Assembly (NCBI GenBank): GCA_013374505.1
Contig: QENJ01000067.1
Span: 1 to 12,496, forward strand
DNA length: 12,496 bases
Direction of reading: 5' to 3'
From: Candidatus Methanophagaceae archaeon
Lineage (GTDB): Archaea > Halobacteriota > Syntropharchaeia > Alkanophagales > Methanospirareceae
Shown here in pieces: positions 1 through 12,496 of this stretch; the first letter of the stretch is position 1; each line of letters starts with the position of its first letter. The notes below the pieces were generated by a model. It did not search any database. It was not told the DNA's origin and saw only the letters and a list, made by a program, of their open reading frames with translations. The position numbers and the translations under genes are program-made.

Positions 1-1894
1 GTCTTCCTTCTTCGTCTATCTCAAAGGTAGCACCTGGAATGTTAATGTCACCCAGGCGAGCATGCCTTCCTTGCGGGTCGTAGACTGTGAGAGTGGCATT
101 AGAAGCGAGAATAATAGACATCCATAGATCTGCTGCTGGTGGTTGTCTGGTTTGTAAGGCAAGAAGAGCATAATCAGTAGCAAGTTCTGGTATATCCTCC
201 TGCCCATGAGCAGCAGGTGCATTTACCCAGTGCCCGTCATCGTGCTGAAGGCCTGCCAATTTGGTAGAAAGAGCGGCATACCAGTCAACACCACCTAAAT
301 CATTTAGGAAGCACATAGCCAAGGCTTTGGCGGTGGTCATATAGTAATAGTAAAGGAAGCAATGTCCTTGACTGTAAGGATAACCAGGATTATCGTCAAA
401 GCTGCAATCCTCATTGTTGGTTAACCAGGTCAAACCAGCTTGAACTCTTCCATCGGTTACATCAACGCCACAAAGTCTCAGGCTCCAGATGCCAGCCGCG
501 GTCATAGTGCCATAGGATTTGCTTCCTCCAGCCAAACTCCCGCCGGTTGGATAATATATAAAGCCACCATCATTATATGATGGTTGAGTATTATCGTGAG
601 CCCAAGCTTGGTCATTAGATGCTGGTCTATTTTGGCAGTGTGAGGTAAAGTTTATAGCCTTTGTCCAAGTATCATTCCCACTGGGCAATCCTGCTGCACT
701 TAATGCCATAAGTGCAAATTGAGTGTTAGAAAGGTCTCCGTCACTTGGCGAAGATCCGTAACGCCAGCCACCATAGCATGGATCAGTAGGGTCAGCCCCT
801 TCTCCTTCATCGTATTGTGCATCCACAAGCCAATCCCTTGCATCGGCTATTTCGTCGCTGTAGCTTGCATTATGAGTGGCAACTAAGGCTAATACAGCTA
901 AAGATGTTTCGTAAGTTCTCCTTGTCCCAAAAGAGCCATCTGTATTGTTATTAGCCAAGACGTATTGGATAGCTTTGTTGACGGTAGGGTTATCCTCAGT
1001 ATGTCCAGCATTAAGGAAGGCTAAGACTGCCATAGAGGTTATACCAACACTGTTCTGCCATGAGCCGTCTGGGTTTTGGTGGTTGCGGAGCCATTGGAGA
1101 CCTAGCACTATACGGTTTACGCTGGCAAGTGCGTCAATCTTGCCATAGCCCCAATCCTCATTAGGAGTATCACCGGTAAATCCATCGGATCTAGCTCCGA
1201 GTTGCAACATTTTTTTGATTTGCCCATGGGTTAAAGAAGGATATTTCTGGAGGATCAAAGCACTTACTCCAGCTACATGAGGACCAGCTGCACTTGTTCC
1301 ACCAAACCGTCGGTAACTACCCAAGGGATAGGATGATGCATTTGAAGCTGCGGACCCGATATCGTAATTTCCTGGTGCCGCTACATCAACAATAGTTTGT
1401 CCATCTATCCTCGGTCCTCTCCCACTGAAAGTGCTTAGATCGCCAACAGCTACTCCCCATCCTCTTGTACTATACGATGCCACAGTTATGGCGCTGTCGG
1501 AGGTAGCAGGTCGGGTAACAGTGGTCTCGTTAGACTGGAAGGCCGTCCACCTCGCACCTCCCGACCAAGAGGTTTGATCATCATATATATACAAATCAAC
1601 ATGTTCATTGCTGCCACCACTATTACTTACCTGTAATGTCCAGCCCCCAGGGATCACAGGATTCCTCGTAACCTGAATGTCGTACTTTGCAGTTCCTCTA
1701 GTCGAGTCCTCTCGACGATACCAGATTGTGTGTCCATCACCTGTGATTGTGGATTGCCAACCTGCCGGGGGTGCCGCGGGCAAATTCGCTACACTCCCGG
1801 TAGGGGTAGTCACCGTAATGGGTAAATTGTTGCCGGTAGTGCGCCATAATGTTGGGTATATACCCTCTGAATGTTCGTGGTTAACACGGGCACA
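1..1894 (-). CDS. 3' continuation of the S8 protease gene: beta-sandwich insert, catalytic-Ser block, prenyltransferase/terpene-cyclase-like alpha/alpha-toroid repeats and a terminal beta domain. It has no convincing start of its own and its 3' end runs off the window. Together with 1810-3258 it forms one frameshifted gene (possible pseudogene or assembly indel).
   Basis: This frame is not in the supplied track because it has no stop inside the window. The minus-strand frame with codon first bases = 1 mod 3 is open from the TAA at 1895-1897 down to base 1; I translated all of it and found no stops. It reads ..IYPTLWRTTGNNLPITVTTPTGSV..GWTLQVSNSGGSNEHVDLYIYDD..AITVASYSTRG..LSTFSGRGPRIDGQTIVDVAAPGNYDIGSA..FGGTSAAGPHVAGVSALILQKYPSLTHGQIKKML, which is the subtilase Ser block (Ser codon 1292-1294). 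From about 1100 to 140 it carries QNPDGSW, NTDGSFG, YGGWRYG, YNDGGFIYY and QHDDGHW repeats. It ends ..LTVYDPQGRHARLGDINIPGATFEIDEEGR at the window edge. Confidence 0.8.
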
Positions 1895-3258
1895 TTAAAG
1901 GCGAAGCTTGTGCTGCCACCAGCGGTTACATCATCCTGAGCATGTTTATCATTGCCAGCTAAGTTACCGGCTGGAACAACCTGTACAATGCCCCCAGCAG
2001 CTTCAGTATCAATCATCTGCTCCAAATTGGAAGAGCCGTCGAGGAATTGCTGTATCCATCCACCAAATTCATATATCATAACGTCTGCACCATTAGCCCT
2101 AGCCCAAGGAATATATACGGTGTAGTCATTGTCATATCTATCTGCTACGAGAAGTTCTGCATTTGGTGCAACACCTACATAGCTTCTCCTTTCAATAATT
2201 CCTCCGTTTACGATTCCGCACACACTTGTTCCATGTCCATTAGTATCATCGTCGGTCAATATAAGGTCAGTTCCTCTTGTACGTGTAGTACCGCCTGTGT
2301 TCAATGTCCTAAAAACTTTACTTGTGCCAAGTGCTATCACGTCCTCTCCGACGTCAAGGGCATTGTTACTATTCGAATCATCTACAATGAAAAGTAGTTC
2401 ACCATACGTGGGGTCCGTCTCTGTGAAACCGCTTGCTGTGCCATAATCCCGCTGGCCATTGCCATTAGCATCATTGTACAGCCAATCCATGTCCGCTTGA
2501 AACACGCCATCATTATTTCCCGCGGGTCCATCACCGTCAAAGAAATGAAGCGTTTCCCCTGCATTTGCAGCTCCGTTTCCGTTCAGATCTACGGCATCAG
2601 TTCCGGGATCAAATACATTATTACCGTCTGTATCGATCCAGTTGTAGGACCCTCCATCGGCTTGCCAAAAATCTGGATGGAAAACATCAATGCCTGTATC
2701 GAAATCCGCTATCGTTATCCCTTCTCCGGTTATATTGGTTCCCCCAGCATCAAGCAACTGCCATACGTCATCAGCATTAATCTCGGGAACGCTTACATCT
2801 AGAGGATTCTCTAATCCTAGCTGCCAAGTGGACTCAATACGCAAGACATCAGCCCTTTCCTTCAAGGCATCTACATAGGCGATAGGCATCTCTGCACCAT
2901 AGATTGTGCCTGAATGAGCCACTTCGTCATTCACACGCGCAAACATCAACCCCTGTGCCTCTAAAGCTGCAATTTCAGCCTCACTCAGTTCGTGATCGAA
3001 ATGAATACTCACGCTAAGGCTTTGTATTTGCGCGAGGCTACGTACGGCCTCGCCAAGGTCACTAGTCAAGCTAGGTTGGACTTCTGTCTCTGCTAGTGCA
3101 AGCAGAAGCTCTAGCGTGGCGCCGGTCTTGCTAAGATAAGAAGGCGTCTGTGCGTTAGCTGTTTCCATATTACCAGCACTGATGGCAACAGGCGAAAGCA
3201 ACATGGACAAAACCAGTATTGCCATCAGCGTATAAAATCCTATTCTCTTTGCCTTCAT
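1810..3258 (-). CDS. Secreted subtilisin-family (peptidase S8) protease, N-terminal part: signal peptide, pro-region, and catalytic Asp, His and oxyanion Asn. The frame ends before the Ser block.
   Basis: Tracked ORF of 482 aa. The signal peptide is MKAKRIGFYTLMAILVLSMLLSPVAISA. The Asp block is ITIADFDTGID, the His block is TNGHGTSVCGIV and the Asn block is VVPAGNLAGN. No GTSxA Ser block occurs before the TGA at 1810-1812; it lies in the adjacent frame (feature 1-1894). The ATG overlaps the upstream gene's stop (ATGA, 3255-3258). Confidence 0.85.
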   Translation of the reverse strand: MKAKRIGFYTLMAILVLSMLLSPVAISAGNMETANAQTPSYLSKTGATLELLLALAETEVQPSLTSDLGEAVRSLAQIQSLSVSIHFDHELSEAEIAALEAQGLMFARVNDEVAHSGTIYGAEMPIAYVDALKERADVLRIESTWQLGLENPLDVSVPEINADDVWQLLDAGGTNITGEGITIADFDTGIDVFHPDFWQADGGSYNWIDTDGNNVFDPGTDAVDLNGNGAANAGETLHFFDGDGPAGNNDGVFQADMDWLYNDANGNGQRDYGTASGFTETDPTYGELLFIVDDSNSNNALDVGEDVIALGTSKVFRTLNTGGTTRTRGTDLILTDDDTNGHGTSVCGIVNGGIIERRSYVGVAPNAELLVADRYDNDYTVYIPWARANGADVMIYEFGGWIQQFLDGSSNLEQMIDTEAAGGIVQVVPAGNLAGNDKHAQDDVTAGGSTSFAFNVPVLTTNIQRVYTQHYGALPATIYPLR

Positions 3259-4895: not shown

Positions 4896-5291
4896 ATGAG
4901 CGAACTGCAAGATTTGTTGAAAGAGTCGGGATATTCGGATAAAGCCATTGAGTACTATCTGAACAAAGTGAATGTCGGAGAGCTAACCGAGCCAGATGCT
5001 CATGCGATATATACGGGACCCTGTGGCGATACGATGGAGATTTTTTTGAATGTAAAAGAGGGCGTGATAAAAGAAGCGAAGTTCCAGGCGATAGGCTGTG
5101 CAGGTGCTTTTTCGTCTGGCTCTGCCCTTACAGAAATGATCATCGGAATGACATTAGAAGAGGTGGAGAAGATAGATGAAGAGCTAATAATAAATTATCT
5201 GGGCGGTATTCCACGGCAGAAGGTACATTGCACGTGTTTATCTAAAAGGACGTTGCAAAAAGCGATTAATAATTATAAAGAAAAGGGGTGA
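4896..5291 (+). CDS. IscU / NifU-N-terminal-domain-type iron-sulfur cluster assembly scaffold protein
   Basis: Tracked ORF of 131 aa. The three scaffold cysteines are in the canonical contexts GPCGD, AIGCAGAFSS and KVHCTCLS. It is colinear with the IscU pattern YS.K..D.Y.N..NVG.... Confidence 0.85.
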   Translation: MSELQDLLKESGYSDKAIEYYLNKVNVGELTEPDAHAIYTGPCGDTMEIFLNVKEGVIKEAKFQAIGCAGAFSSGSALTEMIIGMTLEEVEKIDEELIINYLGGIPRQKVHCTCLSKRTLQKAINNYKEKG

Positions 5292-5308
5292 TAAAAAACT
5301 AAATTGTT

Positions 5309-5397
5309 GACACAGATTAACGCAGATTAACACAGATGATAAAAAGCAACAGAGTTAAACATAAATAAATACGTGTAAATCAATGTTAATCTGTGTC
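5309..5397. promoter_or_regulatory. Putative operator/promoter: a 13-bp inverted repeat plus a 10-bp-periodic tandem repeat bracketing a TATA-like box
   Basis: GACACAGATTAAC (5309-5321) is the exact reverse complement of GTTAATCTGTGTC (5385-5397). The left arm is followed by in-phase 10-bp copies: ACAGATTAAC 5312-5321, GCAGATTAAC 5322-5331 and a degenerate ACAGATGATA 5332-5341. ATAAATAAAT at 5361-5370 is TATA-like, which puts the expected TSS inside the right arm, about 40 nt upstream of the ATG at 5435. Confidence 0.5.
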
Positions 5398-5434
5398 TTA
5401 AAGAGAAGGCAGTTATACTTTAGGTACAATAAAA

Positions 5435-6106
5435 ATGGAAGAAAAAGAGAAGAAGAAAGACCTGTTGGATAAAGGCGCAATTGTCCAGCGGGATTATGAA
5501 ACGTATGCGATTGCGCCGCATATACCGGGCGGGATTTGCGAACCCGGTACGCTACGGAATATAGCAGATGTCGCGGAGAAATACAATGCTGCAGCGTTAA
5601 AATTGACCTCAGCACAACGAATAGCAATTGTGGGTATAGCAGAGAGCGATATAGAAGCTGCCTGGCACGACCTCGATATGCCACCGGGTGCAGCTATCGG
5701 GTTATGTATCAGAAGCGTAAAAATCTGTCCGGGAACAACGTTCTGTAAAAGGGGCAAGCAAGATTCTGTGAAATTGGGTCTGGAATTTGATAGCAAGTAT
5801 CACGGGTTGGAACTGCCTTCAAAGTTCAAAATCGGCGTTTCCGGTTGTAGTAATAGCTGTGCGGAGTCCTGGATAAAGGACCTGGGCTTCATCGGTATGC
5901 CAAAGGGCTGGAAAGTGGTGGTCGGAGGTTCCGCAGGTGCTGCACCAGCGATTGCAGAAGTTTTGGCAGAGAATTTGAGTGATGATGAGGCTATGGCTCT
6001 TGCTGATCGAATCATCAATTACTACAAGAACTGCGACACAAAAAAGCGATTGGGCAGGTATATTAAAGAAGTCGGGCTGGATGAATTCAGAAAAGAGGTT
6101 TTATAA
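5435..6106 (+). CDS. Small (~24 kDa) nitrite/sulfite reductase-family hemoprotein with a siroheme-[4Fe-4S] binding motif (low-molecular-weight assimilatory-type sulfite-reductase-like)
   Basis: Tracked ORF of 223 aa. The N-terminal ferredoxin-like half domain reads IVQRDYETYAIAPHIPGGICEPGTLRNIADVAEKYNAAALKLTSAQRIAIVGI. The four-Cys signature is C-x5-C (CPGTTFC) .. C-x3-C (GCSNSC) with KIGVSGC context, as in the SiR/NiR siroheme domain. Confidence 0.85.
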   Translation: MEEKEKKKDLLDKGAIVQRDYETYAIAPHIPGGICEPGTLRNIADVAEKYNAAALKLTSAQRIAIVGIAESDIEAAWHDLDMPPGAAIGLCIRSVKICPGTTFCKRGKQDSVKLGLEFDSKYHGLELPSKFKIGVSGCSNSCAESWIKDLGFIGMPKGWKVVVGGSAGAAPAIAEVLAENLSDDEAMALADRIINYYKNCDTKKRLGRYIKEVGLDEFRKEVL

Positions 6107-6133
6107 TAGCCTATAACCAGGAGAAGGAAACGT

Positions 6134-7078
6134 ATGAGTGAGGTAGCATCAAAAAAGGGAATGGTGGAGATGTCGGGGTGTAGTGTAAAGGAGGGCGATT
6201 TACCCACCGCCAATGTAGAAGGCAAAGAAGTACCATGGGATCCTGCACAGCTAAGGAAGATTAGTGAACACCCTTGTTTCAGTGAAAACGCCTGTCATTT
6301 CTTCGGCAGAATACATCTCCCGGTGGCACCGAAATGCAACATCCAATGTAATTATTGTGTACGGAAATTCGATTGCGTGAATGAGTCGCGACCCGGAGTG
6401 ACGAGCAAGGTGCTAATGCCACAGGAGGCGTTAGAACTGGTACGTGATGTAATGGAAAAGGTGCATTACATAAAGGTAGTTGCCGTTGCGGGACCCGGCG
6501 AGCCACTGTTTAACGAAGAGACGTTCGAGACGTTCCGGCTCGTGAAGGATGAGTTCCCACACCTGATGCGGTGTCTGAGCACGAACGGGCTTCTTTTGCC
6601 CGAACGGATTGACGAGATAGAAGAGTTGGACATCGGAACTGTGACAGTCACACTGAACGCTATAGACCCTGCGATAGGTAAGGACATCTATTCGGTTGTC
6701 AATTACCGCGGTAAACGATATAAAGGCGAAGAAGGTGCTGAGATACTGTTGAAGAACCAGTTGGAAGGCATTCGAGAGGCTGTGAAACGTAAGATACTGA
6801 TAAAAGTGAATACTGTTCTTATTCCCACGGTAAATGATGAGCATATCGTGGAGGTAGCGAAGGAGATACGTAAGCTGGGCGTTTATATGCACAATATTAT
6901 CCCGCTCATCCCGCAGTACAAGTTCGCGAATATTAAACCACCGACACAGCAAGAGAAGGAGGCGATTCAGGAGAAATGCCGCGAGTACGTGAAAGAGATG
7001 ACTCACTGCCGGCATTGCCGTGCCGATGCTATTGGCAAGCTGGGAAAGGACATCCAACAGCGTATGTACTCAGAATAA
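6134..7078 (+). CDS. nifB: NifB, the radical SAM nitrogenase cofactor (NifB-co) biosynthesis protein, in the minimal stand-alone form without a C-terminal NifX-like domain
   Basis: Tracked ORF of 314 aa. It carries the NifB hallmark HPCFSENACHFFGRIHLPVAPKCNIQCNYCVRKFDCVNESRPGVTS (CxxxCxxC radical SAM cluster), then GPGEPL and LSTNGLLLP, and C-terminally HCRHCRADAIGKLG. An AGGAGAAGG Shine-Dalgarno-like site lies at 6119-6127. The gap from the upstream gene is 27 nt. Confidence 0.9.
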   Translation: MSEVASKKGMVEMSGCSVKEGDLPTANVEGKEVPWDPAQLRKISEHPCFSENACHFFGRIHLPVAPKCNIQCNYCVRKFDCVNESRPGVTSKVLMPQEALELVRDVMEKVHYIKVVAVAGPGEPLFNEETFETFRLVKDEFPHLMRCLSTNGLLLPERIDEIEELDIGTVTVTLNAIDPAIGKDIYSVVNYRGKRYKGEEGAEILLKNQLEGIREAVKRKILIKVNTVLIPTVNDEHIVEVAKEIRKLGVYMHNIIPLIPQYKFANIKPPTQQEKEAIQEKCREYVKEMTHCRHCRADAIGKLGKDIQQRMYSE

Positions 7079-7128
7079 ACAGGAAAGCACACACACCAAA
7101 AATCCGCGTCTAAGACCGCTGAAAAGAA

Positions 7129-7881
7129 ATGGACCTGGTAGTATTGTACAGCGGCGAGTTCGGTGAACGAGTAATTGGAAACTTCATAAACTACTCAACC
7201 TTCTGCATATCCTGTGCAGATGCCTGCACGCACTGTAAAGAAGCTAAATACGGATTTGCAGACCGTATAAACGGATTGTTTAAGCTTCCTGAGCCTTCTA
7301 TGCTTCCGGAATTCATAGAAGATTCTGCGGGTGAGTATTTACCGCAGGAGATTCCAGATGCAGACATAGCGATTGTATCTGAGATTCACAATGACCTCCT
7401 GCTGGAACTCCCACCCATTTTAAAGGATTCGGGGATTAAAGCGATGATAGTACCACAAGAGAGTGCTGCTAGGATTGCAAGACCGCAGGTTGAAGAGATA
7501 TGCGGTAGAGAAGGAATTGAGGTAGTCTTTCCAAAGCCGTTTTGTGATTTACAGCCGCAGGACGACAAGCCCGTGATTCGCAGTTTTATCGCAGAATTCG
7601 GGATTGGAATACCAGAGATACGGGTAGAAATGGATAGGCGTGGGCGTATTGTTCATGTAGATGTTTTGAGAAGTGCTCCTTGCGGGAGTACCTGGTTCGT
7701 GGCAAAGCAGTTAGAAGGCGTAGAAGTTGAGAACAAACTAGAACTTTACGATCGAATCAGTGAATCTCATCATTCCTATCCCTGTACCGCGAGCATGGAG
7801 AAAGATCGTGAGATTGGCGATACGATTCTGCATAGGGCGGGTTATTTGATTAGGGAAGCGGTAGAAAAGGCGTTAATATGA
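7129..7881 (+). CDS. Cys-rich protein resembling the archaeal DUF166 / COG1810 family (PF02593), function unknown
   Basis: Tracked ORF of 250 aa. It has an N-terminal CISCADACTHC cluster (C-x2-C-x3-C-x2-C) plus conserved-looking PFCD, APCGSTWF and HHSYPCTASM..GDTILHRAGY blocks. The family assignment is from memory of the DUF166 pattern and needs an HMM check. That the ORF is coding is much more certain than its name. Confidence 0.6.
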   Translation: MDLVVLYSGEFGERVIGNFINYSTFCISCADACTHCKEAKYGFADRINGLFKLPEPSMLPEFIEDSAGEYLPQEIPDADIAIVSEIHNDLLLELPPILKDSGIKAMIVPQESAARIARPQVEEICGREGIEVVFPKPFCDLQPQDDKPVIRSFIAEFGIGIPEIRVEMDRRGRIVHVDVLRSAPCGSTWFVAKQLEGVEVENKLELYDRISESHHSYPCTASMEKDREIGDTILHRAGYLIREAVEKALI

Positions 7882-8032: not shown

Positions 8033-8800
8033 TTATTGTTCTGGCAGAATTTCAATAAATTTCGCTTTCCGTGGCGTTTTCCTGATCTCATTTATCTCGG
8101 AATACAAAGGGTGATAGGATACAACATATAGATGCCTCATCGCACCGGAAACCGCATCTATCAAATCTCGTTTCTCTGGTTCTTTAAACTCCACGCCCTC
8201 TAATGGTATCCAGGGCTCAATGAAAAGTGCAATCGCGGGATCTATCCGTGAAATGAAGATTGCCAGACGTTCTATATCCGCAGGATCATTTATCCCAGGG
8301 ATCAAAACCGTCTCAATCTGTAATCTGAAATAAGCATCTTCTAGCGTTACTAAGTTCTTTATCGCAGTCAATACTGGCTTGACACTCCTTTTCGTGTAGT
8401 AAAGATGCTTTTTGGCATCAAATGCCTTTATGCCGATAATAATCTCGTTCACACCCGTTTTTTTCAAGTCTTTCGCATATTCCATGTCTATTCTGCCCCC
8501 ATTTGTCATCAATACGATATGTGCGCCGAGCTTTGTGATTCTTTCGATTATCATTATCAAATCCGGGTCGAGTGTAGGTTCATAGCCACCAAGATATATC
8601 CTATGCGGCTTCAACTCTTCCAATTCTGTTAGTATGTTATCTAAATTCCAATCAATGTATTTCCGCTCTTCCGCATAGATGTCACATTCGTTTCTTTTCC
8701 TGAGACAACCTATACACTCGAAGTTGCATCCTTTAAAAGACAGCATGGCCATCCTCTCACCCACGAATTTTTGTGTGTAGCTCATGTGGTAAATATTCAT
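8033..8800 (-). CDS. Radical SAM enzyme of unknown substrate (about 255 aa, with no SPASM or other auxiliary Cys cluster seen)
   Basis: It has a canonical CNFECIGC (CxxxCxxC) motif after LSFKG, then a GGYEPTL glycine-rich SAM motif and MTNGG. The tracked ORF begins at 8908, but I place the start at ATG 8798-8800 (MNIYHMSY..). That start is preceded by GGAAGGAGA 7 nt upstream and avoids overlapping the 3' end of the upstream gene. Confidence 0.85.
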   Translation of the reverse strand: MNIYHMSYTQKFVGERMAMLSFKGCNFECIGCLRKRNECDIYAEERKYIDWNLDNILTELEELKPHRIYLGGYEPTLDPDLIMIIERITKLGAHIVLMTNGGRIDMEYAKDLKKTGVNEIIIGIKAFDAKKHLYYTKRSVKPVLTAIKNLVTLEDAYFRLQIETVLIPGINDPADIERLAIFISRIDPAIALFIEPWIPLEGVEFKEPEKRDLIDAVSGAMRHLYVVSYHPLYSEINEIRKTPRKAKFIEILPEQ

Positions 8801-8852
8801 GACTGTGTCTCCTTCCAGTACTAATGTTGTAGATACAGTGATTTTTAAACGT

Positions 8853-9872
8853 TCACACCCTTTTTGTTTTTCTTCTTGAGAAGTACAGTACCGTAAGTAA
8901 GCCAGCAACTGCTAATACCGCTTCAAACCCGGCAGGCTCTGGTGTGGGCGTCCCCGTATCACCGACCGATTCTGACAGACACGCATAAACAATCTCCGTT
9001 GCGTTTGCTATCCGGGGTCCTGCTCGAGACGCGATGTCCGCATCAATAGTGTAAACTCTACCGTTTTTAACGGCATTCACTACTTTCAGCCGCTCCTCTT
9101 GTAGTATATAATCATACGGCTGCATGCCCGCGACGCCATGCCCAATCGAGACAATAATGACATCAGGATTGCGGTCTATGAACTCTTCCAGACTCGCAGT
9201 ATCCCACTCTTTTTTGTCAGAAAAGACATTATCGCCACCTGCTAATTCTATCAACTCGTCCTGTACGGTGCCGCCACCCGCAACCCAGAGCGGGTCATGC
9301 CAGGTAATATGAGCAACTTTCGGGCGTTTCACGTCCACAGTTCGAGCTTTTATCGCTTCTAATCTTTGTGCCATATCGGTGACTAAAGCAGTAGCATTCT
9401 CTTCTTTGCCAGTTAAACGTCCTACCAGCATTATATCGTCCTGTATCTCCTGGATGTTCACCGGATTCAGGGATACGACCGCTACATTCAGCTCTGTCAA
9501 TCGCTCAACTGTTTCTTTGCTGTTCAACGCGCAGCCGAGCACGAGGTCGGGCTCTGAGGCTACTACTTTCTCTATGCTCACCGTGGAAACGCCACCTACC
9601 CGCGTAATTTCTTCCGCTTCTGCCGGGTAATTACAGTAATCTGTTGCACCTATGACTCTGTCACCGGCGCCAATAGCGAATAGTATTTCCGTATTGGTTG
9701 GCGATAACGAGATGATTCTTTCCGAAACTCCCGGGAGGGTTACATTCCTACCGAAGTCGTCAGTTACTTTGAGCATTTCTGCGCTTACCGCAAAAGCAGA
9801 AAAAGCGAGTGCTGCGATAAAAGCGAGTGTTAGCACTGTGAGTGTGCATATATCCCTTCTATTAGTATTCAT
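8853..9872 (-). CDS. BtuF/FhuD-type (Peripla_BP_2) substrate-binding protein for a corrinoid, siderophore or metal chelate, with an N-terminal signal and a C-terminal PGF-CTERM-like archaeosortase sorting signal
   Basis: Tracked ORF of 339 aa. Family blocks are ERIISLSPTNTEILFAIGAGDRVIGATDYCNYPAEA..VGG..SIEKVVASEPDLVLG, then HDPLWVAGGGTVQDELIELAGGDNVF and NPDVIIV. The signal/TM segment is CTLTVLTLAFIAALAFSAFAVSA. The tail is TGTPTPEPAGFEAVLAVAGLLTVLYFSRRKTKRV. Confidence 0.85.
   Translation of the reverse strand: MNTNRRDICTLTVLTLAFIAALAFSAFAVSAEMLKVTDDFGRNVTLPGVSERIISLSPTNTEILFAIGAGDRVIGATDYCNYPAEAEEITRVGGVSTVSIEKVVASEPDLVLGCALNSKETVERLTELNVAVVSLNPVNIQEIQDDIMLVGRLTGKEENATALVTDMAQRLEAIKARTVDVKRPKVAHITWHDPLWVAGGGTVQDELIELAGGDNVFSDKKEWDTASLEEFIDRNPDVIIVSIGHGVAGMQPYDYILQEERLKVVNAVKNGRVYTIDADIASRAGPRIANATEIVYACLSESVGDTGTPTPEPAGFEAVLAVAGLLTVLYFSRRKTKRV
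8856..8938 (-). other. PGF-CTERM-like tripartite sorting signal (Thr/Pro linker, AGF motif, TM helix, basic tail)
   Basis: DTGTPTPEP-AGFEAV-LAVAGLLTVLYF-SRRKTKRV closely resembles methanogen PGF-CTERM tails (..PGFEA.FA.AGLLAVAYL.RRR), except that it has P-A-G-F instead of P-G-F. Confidence 0.5.
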
Positions 9873-9972: not shown

Positions 9973-10161
9973 TTATGCCGCCATATATAGCGAATTACCG
10001 TCAATAAACCACGGACCTAACTCTTTTTTTATCGCCTCCAACCGTTCCTCTAATTGTTCTTCCCTCTCTTCAAGCTCGAATTCAGACATATTCTGAAGTA
10101 GCCGTAGCAAATCCTTCATCAGTCTTGTTTTCTCTTCTTCGTTCATTTTTATCACGCACAT
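9973..10161 (-). CDS. Hypothetical small acidic coiled-coil protein (62 aa, or 57 aa from the second Met)
   Basis: Tracked ORF reading MCVIKMNEEEKTRLMKDLLRLLQNMSEFELEEREEQLEERLEAIKKEL... It shows heptad-like charge periodicity. A TTTTATAT TATA-like box on the minus strand lies about 25 nt upstream of the ATG, consistent with a leaderless transcript. I recognised no family. Confidence 0.35.
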   Translation of the reverse strand: MCVIKMNEEEKTRLMKDLLRLLQNMSEFELEEREEQLEERLEAIKKELGPWFIDGNSLYMAA

Positions 10162-10302
10162 AGTCTAATTGCAGGTCTGCGATATAAAAGAAGTTGGAGT
10201 TGGCACTATAAATAGGTTCCCCTTTAGGTAGTAACTATAACCTAGATGGGTAAACATATGTTTCATTTGAATTGGTGTCGCTGCTCACACATTACACCCA
10301 CC

Positions 10303-10665
10303 TTATCTTACACCCACCTCATCTTCTGCCGGTACATACACCATTCCTCCACCTTTTGTTTTATATATCCTACCCATTTCACCTGTTATCTCAGTCTGTA
10401 CCGTCTCGTTCATCATATCCAGCTTCTCTATCCGTTCTCCGCTTTTTACTATTACTTCCATGTTCGGCTGCCCCGGATTCTTGACTATTGTCATATCTGT
10501 CTGCGTTAGCACTTCGGGTATGCTGAGATACATCAGCAGCATCACCATTAACCCGAGTGCGAATACCATCGCCACGTCAAATAGATTGGCAACGGAGGAC
10601 ATCGGGTCTTCGTCACATCTTCCACGTTTGCGACTTCCGCCTCCTACGTCTTTCATGTATTTCAT
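10303..10665 (-). CDS. ExbD/TolR-like single-pass membrane protein (DUF2149-like)
   Basis: Tracked ORF of 120 aa. A basic N-terminus is followed by DEDPMSSVANLFDVAMVFALGLMVMLLMYL: one TM helix with an embedded Asp (D30, codon 10576-10578), positioned like the essential TM Asp of ExbD/TolR. A small extracytoplasmic domain follows. It starts 14 nt after the ExbB-like stop. Confidence 0.7.
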   Translation of the reverse strand: MKYMKDVGGGSRKRGRCDEDPMSSVANLFDVAMVFALGLMVMLLMYLSIPEVLTQTDMTIVKNPGQPNMEVIVKSGERIEKLDMMNETVQTEITGEMGRIYKTKGGGMVYVPAEDEVGVR

Positions 10666-10679
10666 TTTCTTCTTTTTGT

Positions 10680-11402
10680 TTACTCCCCTCCAAACAGCAT
10701 CTCACAAATATACCGCATGTCGTTCATATCCTTATCGTACCAGTGCTGCCGAACCGTAGTAATCACGAATGCAACACCACCAACCAAGAGACCGAGGACT
10801 GTGGTACCGAAAGCGAAGATTAGGCTGGTTGCCAGCGTATTTATATCGCCCTGTGTGAGTGCAAGTAGTGCAGGACCCATCGGTATCAGCGTACCCATAA
10901 GCCCGAGTATCGGCCCTATTCTAACCGCGGTTCTCGTCTTTTCCAGCCGTTTTGTCATCTCCTCATCGCACGTCTGCAACAGCTTTTGCAACCTTACCGC
11001 AAATAGCTCGTCATTTTTTAGCGTTGAGAGTTCATTCAGAAACATGTGCACGAATTTGTGTGCTGTGCAATTTTTGAGCACGGCAATTGCCTCTTTGTGC
11101 TCTTTTATTGTTTTACCCTTGCGTGCGTTGGGGTTCTCTATATCTTGTACCACCAGGTTCACTGCTTCTTGTAGTCCTTCTTCCAAATCTTTCGGATGGC
11201 TCTTTGAGACTCGCCCGGTTCTCGTAAGCCACTCGAAAGTGAGCATCCCGACCTCTACGATTATCCATAGCGTTAAGCCATACAAAAGTATTAAAACCGG
11301 AATTCTGAGCACAGAAGTAATCAAAGTCAGGAAATCAGAGCTCATCCAGGACACGAAATCAGTGCTCGGCATCAATGTCGGTAGCATCACTACAGGATTC
11401 AT
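10680..11402 (-). CDS. MotA/TolQ/ExbB-family proton-channel protein
   Basis: Tracked ORF of 240 aa. It has a 3-TM ExbB topology with a long cytoplasmic loop. The C-terminal signature is IGPILGLMGTLIPMGPALLAL..LATSLIFAFGTTVLGLLVGGVAFVITTV. Its ATG overlaps the stop of the upstream surface-protein gene (ATGA, 11399-11402). Confidence 0.85.
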   Translation of the reverse strand: MNPVVMLPTLMPSTDFVSWMSSDFLTLITSVLRIPVLILLYGLTLWIIVEVGMLTFEWLTRTGRVSKSHPKDLEEGLQEAVNLVVQDIENPNARKGKTIKEHKEAIAVLKNCTAHKFVHMFLNELSTLKNDELFAVRLQKLLQTCDEEMTKRLEKTRTAVRIGPILGLMGTLIPMGPALLALTQGDINTLATSLIFAFGTTVLGLLVGGVAFVITTVRQHWYDKDMNDMRYICEMLFGGE

Positions 11403-12496
11403 TTTTTGTTGTTAGTCCTCCTTCCTTCTTTAATTTCGTTCCCCGGCGAAATATGTTTCGCATGCGACTTTTTTTCCTTGTAATAACCAAAATAGAAGAC
11501 GGTCATAATAAAAATCGCGACCACAACCAAAAGTATCGGTATCGTGCCGCCACCACCGGCCGCACCGGAAGAAATATTACCAAACGGATAACCCGAAACT
11601 TCGTGTTTTGTTTCTTCTTCTGCTGCAGAAGTGCTAACGTTTACGGGCATTTGCATACCTCCGGTTTCTCCCGAACCGGATTCGCCAGTGCCGCTGCCAG
11701 CACCGAAGCCACCTGCGGAACCGCCACCGCCACCGCCGCCACGGGTACCGGGACCTACAGCAGGAGGCGGCGGAGGCGGAGTTGACAGTGATTGGGGTTC
11801 ATCTTCATCTTTTCCTTTCCGCTCAAGCGTAACATCTTGCCACGCCTTATTATTGATCGGGTTCGTCTCTGTTATCTTGTTATCCGGATCAACCTCAGCA
11901 ACAAGCCTGCAAGTCCGGTTCCCGGATTCTGATTTCAGACTTGAATCCCAATCTGCTTCTGTCACGGTCCAGTTGAAACTTATGTTTGCCTCGCCGTCCG
12001 CATTTAGCATATTAATAGTTTTCGCATCTATCAACCTGCCATTCGCTCGTAACGAAACGTTAAAACTCATGTCCGCTTCAACTTCGTCACTTAAATTTAC
12101 CAAAACATTTACAGATCGCGTTTCGCCTACATACACAGTTTCAAGTGCTTCGAAATCTGAGATAATAAGGTCCAGCGTGTTATTAGCACCAAAACACCAT
12201 AATTTGTGCTGGCCTATTGTATATACTCTACCGTTGGCAATAACAGCAGTCGAGCCACCATTAGGCAAATTCCAGATCTCGTTTCCTGTTGATGCGTCTA
12301 AGCAGTATGTACCTTCAACCCCGTTTGGACCGGTTTTCCCGACTATTAACTTACCATCACTTGAAATCACAGGTGAAATCGTCCAGCCGCCTATGTCTTC
12401 CGCCTTCCAGAGTTCATTCCTATTTTCCGGGTCGATGCAGTAAGTTGCAATAGCGGAATGCCCGGGACATCCGGCACTGATATACAAATTGCCAGA
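11399..12496 (-). CDS. Cell-surface protein, 5'-partial: PQQ-like beta-propeller blades, a CARDB-like Ig domain, a Pro/Gly low-complexity linker and a C-terminal TM anchor with a basic cytoplasmic tail
   Basis: The frame is open to the window edge (..SGNLYISAG..); the tracked start at 12487 is only a TTG. Propeller-type repeats include ATYCIDPENRNELWK, GKLIVG, TYCLDASTGNEIWN and NGRVYTIG. The CARDB-like block is DLIISDFEALETVYVGETRSVNVLVNLS..FNVSLRANG..LNADGEANISFNW..LVAEVDPDNKITETNPINN (about 11822-12175). The linker is PPPPPPAVGPGTRGGGGGGGSAGGFGAGSGTGESGSGETGG (11651-11782). The TM segment is IPILLVVVAIFIMTVFYFGYY. Confidence 0.8.
   Translation of the reverse strand, partial: SGNLYISAGCPGHSAIATYCIDPENRNELWKAEDIGGWTISPVISSDGKLIVGKTGPNGVEGTYCLDASTGNEIWNLPNGGSTAVIANGRVYTIGQHKLWCFGANNTLDLIISDFEALETVYVGETRSVNVLVNLSDEVEADMSFNVSLRANGRLIDAKTINMLNADGEANISFNWTVTEADWDSSLKSESGNRTCRLVAEVDPDNKITETNPINNKAWQDVTLERKGKDEDEPQSLSTPPPPPPAVGPGTRGGGGGGGSAGGFGAGSGTGESGSGETGGMQMPVNVSTSAAEEETKHEVSGYPFGNISSGAAGGGGTIPILLVVVAIFIMTVFYFGYYKEKKSHAKHISPGNEIKEGRRTNNKK

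Follow-up and report, generated by a model that had tools for sequence, protein, structure and literature searches.

We analysed a window of 12,496 nt, by which we mean the whole stretch of DNA considered here. Its top genome matches are Methanophagales MAGs, and the closest named homologue of its DUF2149 protein belongs, at 98% identity, to a genome of Candidatus Methanophagaceae (ANME-1, methane oxidisers), so the contig is archaeal, as had been supposed from the sequence alone. The minus strand carries a triad in the order surface-protein gene (3' end), MotA/TolQ/ExbB gene and DUF2149 gene, as read from the window sequence. The features of the locus are as follows.

8853..9872, minus strand: BtuF/TroA-type substrate-binding protein with PGF-CTERM anchor (Peripla_BP_2 6.1e-38, PGF-CTERM 6.2e-6)
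9973..10161, minus strand: conserved acidic ORF of 62 aa between the DUF2149 and binding-protein genes (phmmer: 8 loci)
10303..10665, minus strand: DUF2149 (HmuV-type) single-pass protein, 120 aa (PF09919, 2.2e-25)
10525-10593, minus strand: DUF2149 transmembrane helix, one hydrophobic helix containing NLFDVAMVF
10576-10578, minus strand: codon of Asp30 in the DUF2149 helix
10680..11402, minus strand: MotA/TolQ/ExbB-family channel subunit, HmuU type, 240 aa (PF01618)
10752-10823, minus strand: channel TM3 motif LIFAFGTTVLGLLVGG
10857-10916, minus strand: channel TM2 motif GPILGLMGTLIPMGPALLAL
11399..11402, minus strand: ATGA stop/start overlap of the surface-protein and channel genes (read from the sequence)
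11399..12496, minus strand: 3' part of the surface-protein gene, 365 codons and a TGA stop (translation), running past the window end
11402..11668, minus strand: conserved C-terminal module (HMM from 14 seed sequences)
11402-11479, minus strand: basic C-terminal tail of 26 residues, KEKKSHAKHISPGNEIKEGRRTNNKK (sequence)
11480-11545, minus strand: C-terminal transmembrane helix, fragment residues 318-339, ending in FG[YF] (hydropathy)
11579-11593, minus strand: GYPFG motif in the module
11633-11641, minus strand: N-x-S/T sequon in the module
11657..11785, minus strand: poly-Pro (6 residues), then Gly-rich linker STPPPPPPAVGPGTRGGGGGGGSAGG... (sequence)
11846..12172, minus strand: membrane-proximal CARDB (Ig-like) domain (PF07705, E 1.3e-11, fragment residues 109-217)
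12218..12442, minus strand: last PQQ/BamB-like beta-propeller blades (PQQ_2, fragment residues 19-93)

The ATG of the DUF2149 gene (10665) follows the channel gene after a gap of 14 nt. What the sequence-only reading had stated about the triad agrees throughout with the window sequence, Pfam and hydropathy. Its remark that TonB and outer-membrane receptors are absent also stands, as no Pfam TonB or TonB-dependent receptor domain was found in any sizeable window ORF. Besides, no CobN or DUF2162 gene lies in the window or in the ~20 kb that make up locus L004.

The loci for comparison were gathered by DUF2149 similarity (at least 542 matches, of which the best 80 were used), with the Asp forming part of one of three search patterns, so the collection carries an ascertainment bias. 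Among these loci the triad turned out to be conserved across several archaeal orders, recurring in dozens of independent genomes, which is more than chance, and the overlap of stop and start is frequently kept too: of 31 genes that carry the module, 20 have a 4-nt overlap between their stop codon and an ATG or GTG start. The 62-aa acidic ORF is tied to the locus only in ANME-1 and matched no Pfam or NCBIfam family.

The channel-DUF2149 pair and its relatives

The channel truly belongs to the MotA/TolQ/ExbB family, as claimed earlier (PF01618 MotA_ExbB 1.5e-11; 44.6 bits, cut-off 22.9), with three hydrophobic segments and the signature GLMGTLIPMGP...FGTTVLGL. In its predicted topology it is N-out, crosses the membrane in 3 TM segments and has a long loop in the cytoplasm. 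Searched against PDB, the channel profile A2 matched TolQ (2.6e-4) and ExbB (1.9e-3) across TM1-TM3; GLMGT is aligned to GLFGT, and AFsTTV to ALIAT. The invariant positions of a 29-sequence alignment include G167, L168, G170, T171, L172, P174, G176, P177, F198 and T201, and the Thr motifs are invariant in archaeal, planctomycete and bacteroidete members. The channel sequences are grouped by partner class, even when they are paralogues within one genome (L022, L026, L031).

The DUF2149 protein has a basic cytoplasmic N-terminus (N-in), one TM helix and an ectodomain of ~65 residues. Asp30 is found in 90 of 90 non-redundant DUF2149 sequences from the loci, and among 150 representatives drawn from an unbiased HMMER scan, 132 contain N-x-x-D and 5 more have the Asp in a variant motif; the others are 8 truncated sequences, 1 with Glu and 4 without an acidic residue. 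The transmembrane Asp is therefore nearly universal in homologues. The earlier label "ExbD/TolR-like" fits the position, size, topology and transmembrane Asp, but homology is not demonstrable: neither Pfam nor PDB profiles gave similarity to ExbD/TolR, and hhalign probabilities stayed below 5%. AF2 models (pLDDT about 60) consist of a helix (23-46) and 5 strands, thus the ectodomain is predicted to be all-beta, and a Foldseek search with this low-confidence model returned no match. The label is an analogy.

The idea that the system is unprecedented does not hold for the pair itself, which is not new: in the hmu operon of Bacteroidota it is known as HmuU/HmuV, and it has been catalogued as the arCOG03208-TolQ pair, as a rule with a CobN-like chelatase beside it. 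In the haem operon hmuYRSTUV both families adjoin in the order seen here (MotA/TolQ/ExbB protein, then DUF2149) and share the motifs GLMGTLIPMGPAL and NLFD with the ANME-1 pair, and a large secreted, C-terminally TM-anchored protein, HmuS, is likewise encoded beside them. HmuS is reported to carry a signal peptide together with a helix at its C-terminus, and periplasmic action was proposed for it from partial proteinase-K data (PMC13227078, PMC12583661). Unlike the hmu operon, the ANME-1 locus is without the CobN-like HmuS, DUF2162 (HmuT), HmuY and the TonB-dependent HmuR, and its partner is a CARDB/propeller/toroid giant with its own conserved C-terminal module. In published models HmuU/HmuV either power the TonB-dependent receptor HmuR or serve inner-membrane transport; the former cannot apply in ANME-1, since the archaeal host has no outer membrane.

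In Methanomicrobia, the linkage between COG0811 (TolQ) and COG4744/arCOG03208 (DUF2149) has been catalogued as conserved (PMC9425974), and the same two families are present in the Methanoculleus and ANME-3 loci L066, L068 and L074. This methanogen arrangement (class 2) has a different channel paralogue, DUF2162 and a CobN-like or ~640-aa beta-helix partner, whereas the window represents a separate paralogous class coupled to giant module-bearing proteins. CobN-like proteins (PF02514) adjoin the pair in Methanoculleus, ANME-3, Planctomycetota and Bacteroidota. Most of them have an N-terminal signal or anchor, and the detector called a C-terminal anchor plus basic tail in about half, while in most others these were recognised by eye.

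The giant surface protein and its C-terminal module

The new element is the giant ectoprotein as partner of the pair. Its full length was obtained from near-identical contigs (L001, 99.5% identical to the window over 6122 nt; L002, 99.98% over 4515 nt). The complete protein (L001:1401-5993) is type I, has 1530 residues and contains, in order, a signal peptide, CARDB repeats, an alpha/alpha toroid, a PQQ-like beta-propeller, a CARDB domain, a linker and the C-terminal anchor. Pfam finds 5 copies of CARDB (1.9e-41) and Prenyltrans/SQHop_cyclase_C/TED matches at about 1e-5 to 1e-6. The propeller that had been read from the fragment is confirmed over the full 1530 residues (PQQ_2 2.6e-19, 70.3 bits), while the window fragment stays sub-threshold (7.9e-5, 22.8 bits against a cut-off of 27.6). 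Against PDB the propeller gives weak sequence matches to BamB (E 2.4e-3 and weaker).

The poly-Pro/Gly-rich stretch, the C-terminal hydrophobic helix and the 26-residue basic tail are all present, as sequence and hydropathy show. The "rigid Pro/Gly stalk" proposed earlier finds no support: since six prolines are followed by long glycine runs, the linker is probably flexible, and it lies outside the conserved part and differs among homologues.

The conserved part is a module of ~75 residues that ends ectoproteins of 1.5-3 kaa whatever their ectodomain. Its elements are the N-x-S/T sequon, GYPFG, a Gly run, the TM helix with FG[YF] at its end, an invariant Glu and the basic tail. Among the ORFs of 88 loci, the module HMM matched 33 with E <= 1.7e-14; every one of these matches sits at the very C-terminus of a giant protein, and the next-best match had E = 5.5e-4. 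It turned out that 32 of the 33 lie directly upstream of the channel gene, the exception being a duplicated copy in L004. These ORFs come from ANME-1, ANME-2, Syntrophoarchaeum and Argoarchaeum/GoM-Arc1 loci, and the module is common to propeller/toroid/CARDB and beta-helix(NosD)/CARDB ectodomains. In a reciprocal test, fragments with the module were found without reference to DUF2149; MotA_ExbB was directly next in 3 of 4, and in the fourth a short unannotated ORF came next, followed by DUF2149. In alignment A4, G61, E65 and R84 are invariant and the sequon Asn is near-invariant. Since G61 and E65 are placed at the cytoplasmic face of the helix and R84 in the tail, the invariant positions would look like an interaction surface as opposed to a generic anchor. 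The proposal that a C-terminally anchored protein is the partner of the motor thus has real comparative support, because otherwise different giant proteins have this module in common.

Proposed motor and competing explanations

The reading that we propose, with about even confidence, is a proton-driven motor of the ExbB/TolQ type working on C-terminally anchored ectoproteins. The three genes would form one membrane machine. The channel and DUF2149 are strongly indicated to be an ion-conducting pair of the ExbB-ExbD/TolQ-TolR kind, which by analogy would be a pentamer around a dimer; such a 5:2 architecture is an extrapolation, as DUF2149 has no detectable ExbD/TolR homology beyond the helix. 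Asp30, near the cytoplasmic helix end, is predicted to face the Thr residues of TM2 (GLMGT) and TM3 (FGTTV) and to make up a proton relay with them. The giant protein would be exported by its signal peptide and then tethered by its C-terminal helix, the module would dock onto the motor as a coupling handle, and proton flux would be turned into motion of the ectodomain or into conformational work on it. The predicted topologies (channel N-out, DUF2149 N-in, giant protein with signal peptide and C-terminal TM) would fit this arrangement. If true, Ton/Tol-like force transduction would operate in a cell without outer membrane, which is a proposal from sequence. The flexible-looking Gly-rich linker would be poor for force transmission and speaks against the motor. 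The published assignments of HmuU/HmuV and the ascertainment bias among the loci weigh against it as well.

The closest mechanical parallels are as follows. With ExbB-ExbD-TonB, the ANME-1 channel shares the family, the 3-TM topology and both Thr motifs; DUF2149 resembles ExbD in being N-in and single-pass, with an Asp near the cytoplasmic helix end and a gene immediately downstream, and in both cases a third, membrane-anchored protein extends outward. However, DUF2149 is not detectably homologous to ExbD, and the locus has neither a TonB-dependent receptor nor an outer membrane. TonB and TolA carry an SHLS-type motif. The ANME-1 third protein is C-terminally anchored by a reversed helix, has 1530 residues and lacks TonB_C and SHLS, and the reversal and the missing motif also count against the motor. 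The claim that it takes TonB's place gains support as to partnership but not as to orientation: with an out-to-in anchor, opposite to TonB/TolA, it is at most a functional analogue. TolQ-TolR-TolA follows the same three-part logic, and the channel profile finds its best structural-database match in TolQ (E 2.6e-4), but TolR-type domain, Pal, TolB and peptidoglycan are missing here, and anchor orientation and partner differ.

In the wider family, the motor would supply mechanical energy to secreted, C-terminally anchored CobN-like chelatases/dechelatases of the HmuS type. Cytoplasmic class I chelatases use an ATP-driven AAA+ partner; secreted ones are out of its reach, so a proton motor would supply the energy. 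The module shows marginal similarity to CobN-type C-termini (best E = 2e-3), thus a coupling mechanism common to the classes stays hypothetical.

We consider it possible, if unlikely, that the proton-driven pair aids the export, folding, retention or release of giant C-tail-anchored proteins. The GldLM/PorLM motor drives secretion of cargo with a conserved C-terminal signal, and here translational coupling goes together with a conserved, signal-like C-terminal module that includes a conserved sequon. As partners the pair has very large, repetitive surface proteins of an adhesin type, either Ig-like or beta-helical, and such proteins are abundant in ANME genomes (PMC5244752). In Salmonella SPI-4, SiiAB has been described as a MotAB-like proton channel tied to a giant Ig-repeat surface protein, and its activity controls the PMF-dependent retention of SiiE (PMC6272769). 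SiiE, however, is a substrate of type I secretion that is kept in its secretion channel rather than C-tail-anchored, SiiA is MotB-like and binds peptidoglycan, and neither DUF2149 nor the C-terminal module is related in sequence to this system. Against this model, the signal peptides of the giant proteins are N-terminal and ordinary, and a stop-transfer helix with basic tail should insert without a dedicated motor. Moreover, CobN-like enzymes, which are served by this pair too, are no adhesins, and secretion-system genes were not found nearby.

It is rather improbable that the pair itself, joined by DUF2162/HmuT in the loci that have it, works as an ion-coupled importer of, or gate for, a metal, a tetrapyrrole or another small ligand, so that the coupling is metabolic and the large ectoproteins only capture or process substrate at the membrane. 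Reviews of P. gingivalis Hmu propose haem/iron passage across the inner membrane by HmuTUV, and DUF2162, an annotated predicted transporter, accompanies the pair in class 2 loci. ANME-1 neighbours include the BtuF-like binding protein and polytopic permease-like genes (L011, L013, L014), and domains of ligand-binding type (DUF4430, toroid) are present. Nevertheless, no solute transporter is known in the MotA/ExbB family, and the DUF2162 gene is missing from the window and L004. Transport also leaves unexplained why a module with cytoplasmic-side invariants is conserved on partners with unrelated ectodomains, and why the subfamily of the channel goes with the type of its partner.

That the pair is an ion channel or envelope-maintenance module of its own, with the surface-protein genes beside it as no more than genomic context, is very improbable. 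The whole pair family lacks a known function, and a few loci (e.g. L077, L018) have no recognisable large partner in the recovered sequence, but this reading is already disfavoured by all 33 strong module matches lying at giant C-termini, 32 directly upstream of the channel gene, by the pair following directly downstream in 4 of 4 reciprocal cases (MotA_ExbB called in 3), by the frequent 4-nt overlaps and by the grouping of channels by partner class. A Zorya-like or other MotAB-based anti-virus defence module is scarcely credible: Zorya has a MotA/MotB-like 5:2 complex and variable surface-protein regions often hold defence genes, but 0 of 4 tested proteins match any PADLOC model, nuclease or other effector genes are not present, and across phyla the family keeps its synteny with genes for chelatases and surface proteins.

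The binding protein and ligand hints

Returning to the motor, its task in the ANME-1 locus might, more speculatively, be the capture and release of a corrinoid or other tetrapyrrole-like ligand, which might be passed to the neighbouring BtuF-like binding protein. Such work is suggested by the alpha/alpha toroid of the giant protein and by two DUF4430 domains (1.4e-13 and 9.4e-14) in a secreted propeller protein encoded upstream. DUF4430 corresponds to the C-terminal domain of transcobalamins (PMC4350170), and DUF4430 proteins occur in 12 class-1 loci, ANME-2 among them. Together with the binding protein these domains are suggestive of corrinoid capture, while many beta-helix/CARDB partners have no evident tetrapyrrole link, which, like the lack of CobN and DUF2162 genes in the window and L004, counts against this ligand.

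The binding protein scores 7.6e-44 for TIGR04281 and 1.3e-35 for BtuF NF002894, both under the curated cut-offs. Homologues were found in 19 loci, but directly downstream of DUF2149 only in L001-L020 and L050. The link drawn earlier between this protein and the triad is thus seen in ANME-1-like loci and not beyond. A TATA-like box lies ~27 nt before its ATG, and the gene may be transcribed separately from its own promoter.

Components of the motor-like pair and its surface protein

The three genes of the triad follow each other closely, and their features are as follows.

11399-12496, minus strand: 3' part of the surface-protein gene, an open frame of 365 codons that runs off the end of the window
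10680-11402, minus strand: channel gene (240 aa), whose ATG overlaps the preceding TGA as ATGA (11399-11402)
10303-10665, minus strand: DUF2149 gene (120 aa), after a 14-nt gap behind the channel gene

The sequence-only reading had described this layout together with the ATGA overlap, the 14-nt gap, the numbers of TM segments, the NLFDVAMVF motif and the basic tail, and all of these statements are correct. It had also taken the contig to be archaeal, in agreement with two findings: among named DUF2149 homologues the nearest, at 98% identity, belongs to a Candidatus Methanophagaceae (ANME-1) genome, and the top genome matches are Methanophagales MAGs.

For the surface-protein fragment, Pfam gave CARDB (1.3e-11) and a sub-threshold PQQ_2 match, and hydropathy gave one C-terminal hydrophobic helix followed by a basic tail of 26 residues. 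An identical channel protein is encoded on two metagenome contigs that extend the window, L001 (99.5% over 6.1 kb) and L002 (99.98% over 4.5 kb), and the complete surface protein obtained from the extended sequence has 1530 residues. From N- to C-terminus it contains a signal peptide, CARDB, an alpha/alpha toroid (borderline matches to Prenyltrans, SQHop_cyclase_C and TED), more CARDB, a PQQ/BamB-like propeller (PQQ_2, 2.6e-19), a last CARDB, six prolines, glycine runs and the C-terminal anchor. Just upstream is a gene that stops one base short of the start of this giant; its product, a secreted propeller protein, carries DUF4430 twice, a domain that forms the C-terminal part of transcobalamins (PMC4350170). 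When the toroid and DUF4430 proteins were compared with solved structures, the matches were BamB-like propellers, designed propellers and squalene-cyclase-like toroids, and no direct sequence link to solved transcobalamin structures was found.

The channel had been assigned to the MotA/TolQ/ExbB family, and it matches PF01618 (MotA_ExbB) above the curated cut-off (44.6 bits against 22.9, E 1.5e-11, residues 117-229). Its hydrophobic segments (22-56, 162-183 and 189-218), with basic residues after TM1 and TM3, give the ExbB/TolQ type of topology, in which the N-terminus is outside and a long cytoplasmic loop connects TM1 with a hairpin of TM2 and TM3. The single channel sequence had no match in PDB and a profile of 29 sequences was needed, which matched TolQ (E 2.6e-4) and ExbB (E 1.9e-3) from TM1 to TM3, with MotA and PomA ranking far behind. 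In the profile alignment, GLMGT of the channel lies on GLFGT in TM2 of TolQ/ExbB, and AF(G/S)TTV lies on ALIAT in TM3. The threonines of these TM2/TM3 motifs are the ones that face the Asp of the small subunit in TolQ/ExbB motors, where the conserved polar residues on the Asp-facing side are T145/T178 of TolQ and T148/T181 of ExbB. Among the 29 sequences, T171 and T201 of the channel are invariant and T200 is at least 90% conserved; the aligned TM2/TM3 motif residues are invariant from ANME-1 to Planctomycetota and Bacteroidota in this alignment.

The gene directly downstream of this MotA/ExbB-family gene encodes a DUF2149 protein, whose PF09919 match (89.2 bits; cut-off 27.1) spans positions 1-91 of the 92 in the profile. 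It has a basic cytoplasmic N-terminus, one N-in helix (about 24-47) with Asp30 in NLFDVAMVF, and about 65 residues outside. Asp30 was present in all 90 non-redundant DUF2149 sequences from the collected loci, a count biased by the fact that one of the three locus-search patterns included the Asp. Its conservation was therefore re-tested with an index-free HMMER scan. Among the 1.84 billion proteins scanned, the family forms 754 clusters at 50% identity, and 150 representatives were inspected. It turned out that 132 of the 150 have N-x-x-D, 5 carry the Asp in a variant motif, 8 are N-terminally truncated, 1 has Glu and 4 have no acidic residue, which makes the TM Asp nearly universal. The four without an acidic residue (P0206, P0222, P0240 and P0265) belong to a subgroup of about 200 aa with Asn, Thr or Leu in place of the Asp, and P0244 has Glu; these variants may be non-conducting or differently coupled. 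A 180-aa protein with an apparent tandem DUF2149 (P0073) might have served as a natural model of a dimer, but it repeats its N-terminal half exactly, its topology would be impossible, and it was discarded as a probable assembly artefact.

The label “ExbD/TolR-like” given to this protein holds for its position, size, topology and TM Asp, but not at the level of family similarity (PF02472). Pfam gave DUF2149 only, a profile search of PDB was empty at E <= 10, and hhalign of the DUF2149 alignment gave a probability of 0.8% with E. coli ExbD and 4.9% with TolR. AF2 models built on alignments of 21 and 81 sequences had an all-beta ectodomain of about 65 residues at low confidence (pLDDT about 60), and Foldseek with this low-confidence model returned only noise, with no PDB match at E <= 0.001. 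Since homology to ExbD/TolR is not demonstrable and topology and Asp are shared, “ExbD-like” is a functional analogy and not a family assignment.

Locus classes of the pair

To summarize the gene neighbourhoods, we took one genome per species and found at least 542 loci with a DUF2149 relative; the best 80 and 8 metagenome loci were analysed, and the domain identities of representative proteins were verified with Pfam. The arrangements are listed below.

Arrangements of the channel-DUF2149 pair in the analysed loci
Class 1 (window type): giant ectoprotein (from about 1500 aa to over 3100 aa; also fragments at contig ends), channel (198-270 aa), DUF2149
Class 2: DUF2162 (PF09930, in the position of HmuT), channel, DUF2149; beside a CobN-like gene (PF02514) or a gene for a beta-helix protein of about 640 aa
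Class 3: long channel fusion (407-487 aa, with a C-terminal extension), DUF2149, C-terminally anchored DUF11/CARDB protein of about 520 aa
CobN-upstream arrangement: CobN-like gene immediately before the channel gene, in other Planctomycetota

The triad is conserved as class 1, which recurs in ANME-1, ANME-2, Syntrophoarchaeum and Argoarchaeum/GoM-Arc1. Two types of ectodomain occur in it: propeller/toroid/CARDB, in many cases close to genes for DUF4430 proteins, and beta-helix(NosD)/CARDB. Class 2 is found in Methanoculleus, ANME-3 and other ANME genomes, and Bacteroidota and some Planctomycetota have a modified version of it. Most of the large neighbours of the pair start with a signal or anchor and end in a helix with a basic tail, features that indicate an extracytoplasmic position. 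The long channel fusions occur in L035, L041, L043, L045, L047, L048, L051, L053, L055, L056 and L082, always followed by DUF2149 and DUF11/CARDB genes, and another fusion, of DUF2162 and MotA (L059:4297-5388, 363 aa), adjoins a CobN-like gene. In Syntrophoarchaeum caldarius, an ORF of 208 aa between giant and channel (L008:8810-9436) was considered as an equivalent of HmuT, but it is Ser-rich and of low complexity without a family match, and is probably a spurious or decayed segment.

The Bacteroidota pair corresponds to HmuU-HmuV, encoded at the end of the hmuYRSTUV operon, which responds to iron and haem. Of the other products, HmuT is a putative permease and HmuS is a CobN-like dechelatase (PMC12583661), for which a signal peptide and a C-terminal membrane helix have been reported and a periplasmic action proposed (PMC13227078). 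In the Bacteroidota Hmu core (HmuSTUV), the CobN-like HmuS and the DUF2162-type HmuT adjoin HmuU/HmuV, whereas PF02514 and PF09930 are absent from the window, L001 and the related ANME-1 contig L004 (about 20 kb); both are present in other loci, e.g. L059, L066 and L084. The archaeal pair is itself listed as the conserved, uncharacterised arCOG03208 “linked to TolQ” (PMC9425974). The statement that no such archaeal system has been characterised therefore needs a limit: the pair is already catalogued, as arCOG03208 and as HmuUV, while we found no paper that treats the archaeal pair together with giant surface proteins. A large comparative-genomics study of ANME does not mention ExbB, MotA or CobN, and our literature searches on DUF2162 and on ExbB/TolQ in ANME comparative genomics found nothing relevant. 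What is already known is a MotA/ExbB-family motor pair with a partner family other than ExbD; what is new is its tie to a candidate coupling module, not described before, at the C-terminus of giant surface proteins of archaea.

A conserved C-terminal module on the giants

The module was defined by an HMM of the last 75 residues of 14 class-1 giants, which we searched against the 4759 ORFs of the loci. There were 33 matches at E <= 1.7e-14, all at the extreme C-terminus of a giant protein, and the next-best match had E = 5.5e-4. The module is retained even where the ectodomain is of the other type, as in the beta-helix giants of L022 and L026. From outside to inside it consists of an N-x-S/T sequon, K...G[YFH]P[FM]G, a Gly run and a helix ending in an invariant Gly (FG[YF]); on the inner side, an invariant Glu four residues past this Gly is followed by an Arg-rich tail. 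The position of invariant residues at the cytoplasmic face points to a specific interaction there rather than to a generic anchor. No PGF-CTERM or related Pfam/NCBIfam sorting signal was found on the C-terminus of the giant, while the neighbouring binding protein does match PGF-CTERM. Unlike archaeosortase-type signals, which have their motif at the start of the helix, GYPFG of the giant lies about 11 residues from the helix and the invariant residues are on the cytoplasmic side. The similarity between the module and the C-termini of CobN-type proteins is marginal (best E = 2e-3).

Genes with the module lie directly upstream of a channel gene in all but one of the 33 cases, the exception being a duplicated copy in L004, and 20 of 31 genes with the module have a stop codon that overlaps an ATG or GTG. 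For a reciprocal test, we searched a collection of 5.8 billion proteins with the module profile alone, which found only 9 short fragments at contig ends, and examined the neighbourhoods of four matches. In 3 of the 4, MotA_ExbB comes directly after the module with a 4-nt overlap, and DUF2149 is next where the contig continues; in the fourth, a short unannotated ORF is followed by DUF2149. Besides, channels with the same class of partner group together in sequence, and this holds even for class 1 and class 2 paralogues of one genome (L022, L026, L028 and L030-L032). The stop/start overlap, the reciprocal test and the channel clustering support a tie between module and motor.

The duplicated copy in L004 (L004:1-1955) is a second giant of 2262 aa located upstream, with the same C-terminal module, the stop as ATGA and then a MotA-like start (ATGAATCCCGTAGTGG). 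No channel gene follows this start, and the segment is 92.5% identical to window 11355-11740; the giant gene and its junction seem to have been duplicated in tandem.

Candidate client, cargo and alternative roles

MotA/ExbB-type ion motors are known for four jobs: flagellar rotation, energising transport at the outer membrane (Ton), outer-membrane upkeep (Tol), and gliding or type IX secretion. All four are bacterial to our knowledge, and most concern diderm envelopes. In the proposed mechanism, the channel-DUF2149 pair would be a proton-driven motor and its client would be the co-encoded, C-terminally tethered ectoprotein. The comparative pattern is as expected under such a mechanism, which is partly supported by it. 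The sequence-only reading had put the surface protein in the place of TonB; the idea of a motor with a client fits the pattern, while the comparison with TonB itself fails. TonB is anchored at its N-terminus and has a Pro-rich spacer and a C-terminal TonB domain, whereas the partner in the window is anchored at the C-terminus and belongs to an archaeal host. The client is thus neither a homologue nor a mimic of TonB, because its helix has the opposite direction, a TonB domain is missing, and the Pro/Gly segment, which had been described as a rigid stalk, is largely glycine and unconserved. As that reading had stated, no TonB, outer-membrane receptor or flagellar gene is present: among the sizeable ORFs of the window, L001 and L004, Pfam found none with a TonB_C or TonB-dependent receptor domain, and among those of the window none with a flagellar domain.

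The window system belongs to a broader family as one of its branches, and secreted CobN/HmuS-type chelatases would be further clients of this family. In the cytoplasm, class I chelatases need an AAA+ ATPase as partner (ChlI/D, CobS/T). For a secreted chelatase homologue, which has no ATP available, a proton motor acting through the anchor would be an attractive substitute for this ATPase, as we infer here (unpublished).

Several alternatives were weighed. A role of the pair in transport, as proposed for HmuTUV, is possible, and so is, by analogy with SiiAB, a role in biogenesis or retention of the surface protein; SiiAB is tied to the giant adhesin SiiE (PMC6272769). Mere adjacency of the pair and the surface-protein genes is disfavoured by the module, the stop/start overlap and the co-clustering of channels with their partners. 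A defence function of the Zorya/MotAB-based kind is disfavoured as well, since PADLOC defence models including ZorA/ZorB gave no match at E <= 0.01 for the four proteins tested.

Beyond the window, it is a tentative and rather improbable generalization that MotA/ExbB-DUF2149 pairs are a distinct, widespread class of proton-driven motors whose clients are extracytoplasmic proteins tethered by a C-terminal helix. If it were true, anaerobic alkane- and methane-oxidising archaea would have motors that actuate giant surface proteins by way of a coupling module reserved for this purpose at the C-terminus, and no force-transducing system across an envelope would have been described in archaea before. 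Such motors would replace the AAA+ partner for secreted CobN/HmuS-type enzymes in Bacteroidota, Planctomycetota and methanogens, and in gut haem dechelation HmuUV would have to be seen as acting on HmuS itself instead of on the outer-membrane receptor.

An archaeal motor hard-wired to giants by a conserved C-terminal handle would bring this motor principle to archaea with a monoderm envelope and add a new type of client. It also offers a testable hypothesis for HmuT/U/V, which make up the uncharacterised half of the Bacteroidota haem-iron operon abundant in the human gut: the motor would work on membrane-anchored HmuS. For ANME, which have not been grown in pure culture so far, it flags a conserved, putatively energy-coupled surface apparatus with possible roles in cofactor scavenging or cell-cell contact.

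Downstream of the DUF2149 gene lie three more genes.

9973-10161, minus strand: conserved ORF of 62 aa, highly acidic, between the DUF2149 and binding-protein genes, without a family match
8853-9872, minus strand: binding protein of BtuF/TroA type with a PGF-CTERM anchor
8033-8908, minus strand: radical SAM ORF, which shares 56 nt with the 3' end of the binding-protein gene when its first TTG is taken as the start

Cooperation of the surface protein with the BtuF-like protein in capturing corrinoids or metal chelates had been suggested. DUF4430, the toroid and the BtuF-like gene are present and agree with this, but the linkage to the binding protein is confined to ANME-1 loci. These three features are the only ones that bear on a corrinoid or other tetrapyrrole cargo, for which they are only suggestive, and the beta-helix partners give no hint of such a cargo. 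In ANME-1 the binding-protein gene may have a TATA-like promoter to itself. Rfam detected neither a riboswitch nor any other RNA in the window.

The position of the 62-aa ORF is conserved in 8 ANME-1 loci, its product is probably helical, and TATA-like boxes lie upstream of it at about 10183-10215. The radical SAM ORF, called as 255-256 aa in related contigs, is kept downstream of the binding protein in 12 loci and has only a generic resemblance to MoaA/AhbD/NirJ-type enzymes. At the other end of the window, a subtilase (Peptidase_S8) gene is present in two pieces (2-1894 and 1810-3258, both on the minus strand) with an apparent frameshift split near 1810-1894, the upstream piece covering profile positions 1-171 and the downstream piece 157-288. 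The downstream piece runs into an alpha/alpha toroid (SQHop_cyclase_C, 5.5e-12), the same kind of domain as in the giant. Between these regions is a divergent cluster.

4896-7881, plus strand: NifU-like, NIR_SIR (sulfite/nitrite reductase-like), NifB-like radical SAM and DUF166 genes

The NifB-like radical SAM protein matches TIGR01290 with 375 bits (cut-off 343.65), and the set of four genes is syntenic in the related ANME-1 contigs L004 and L005.
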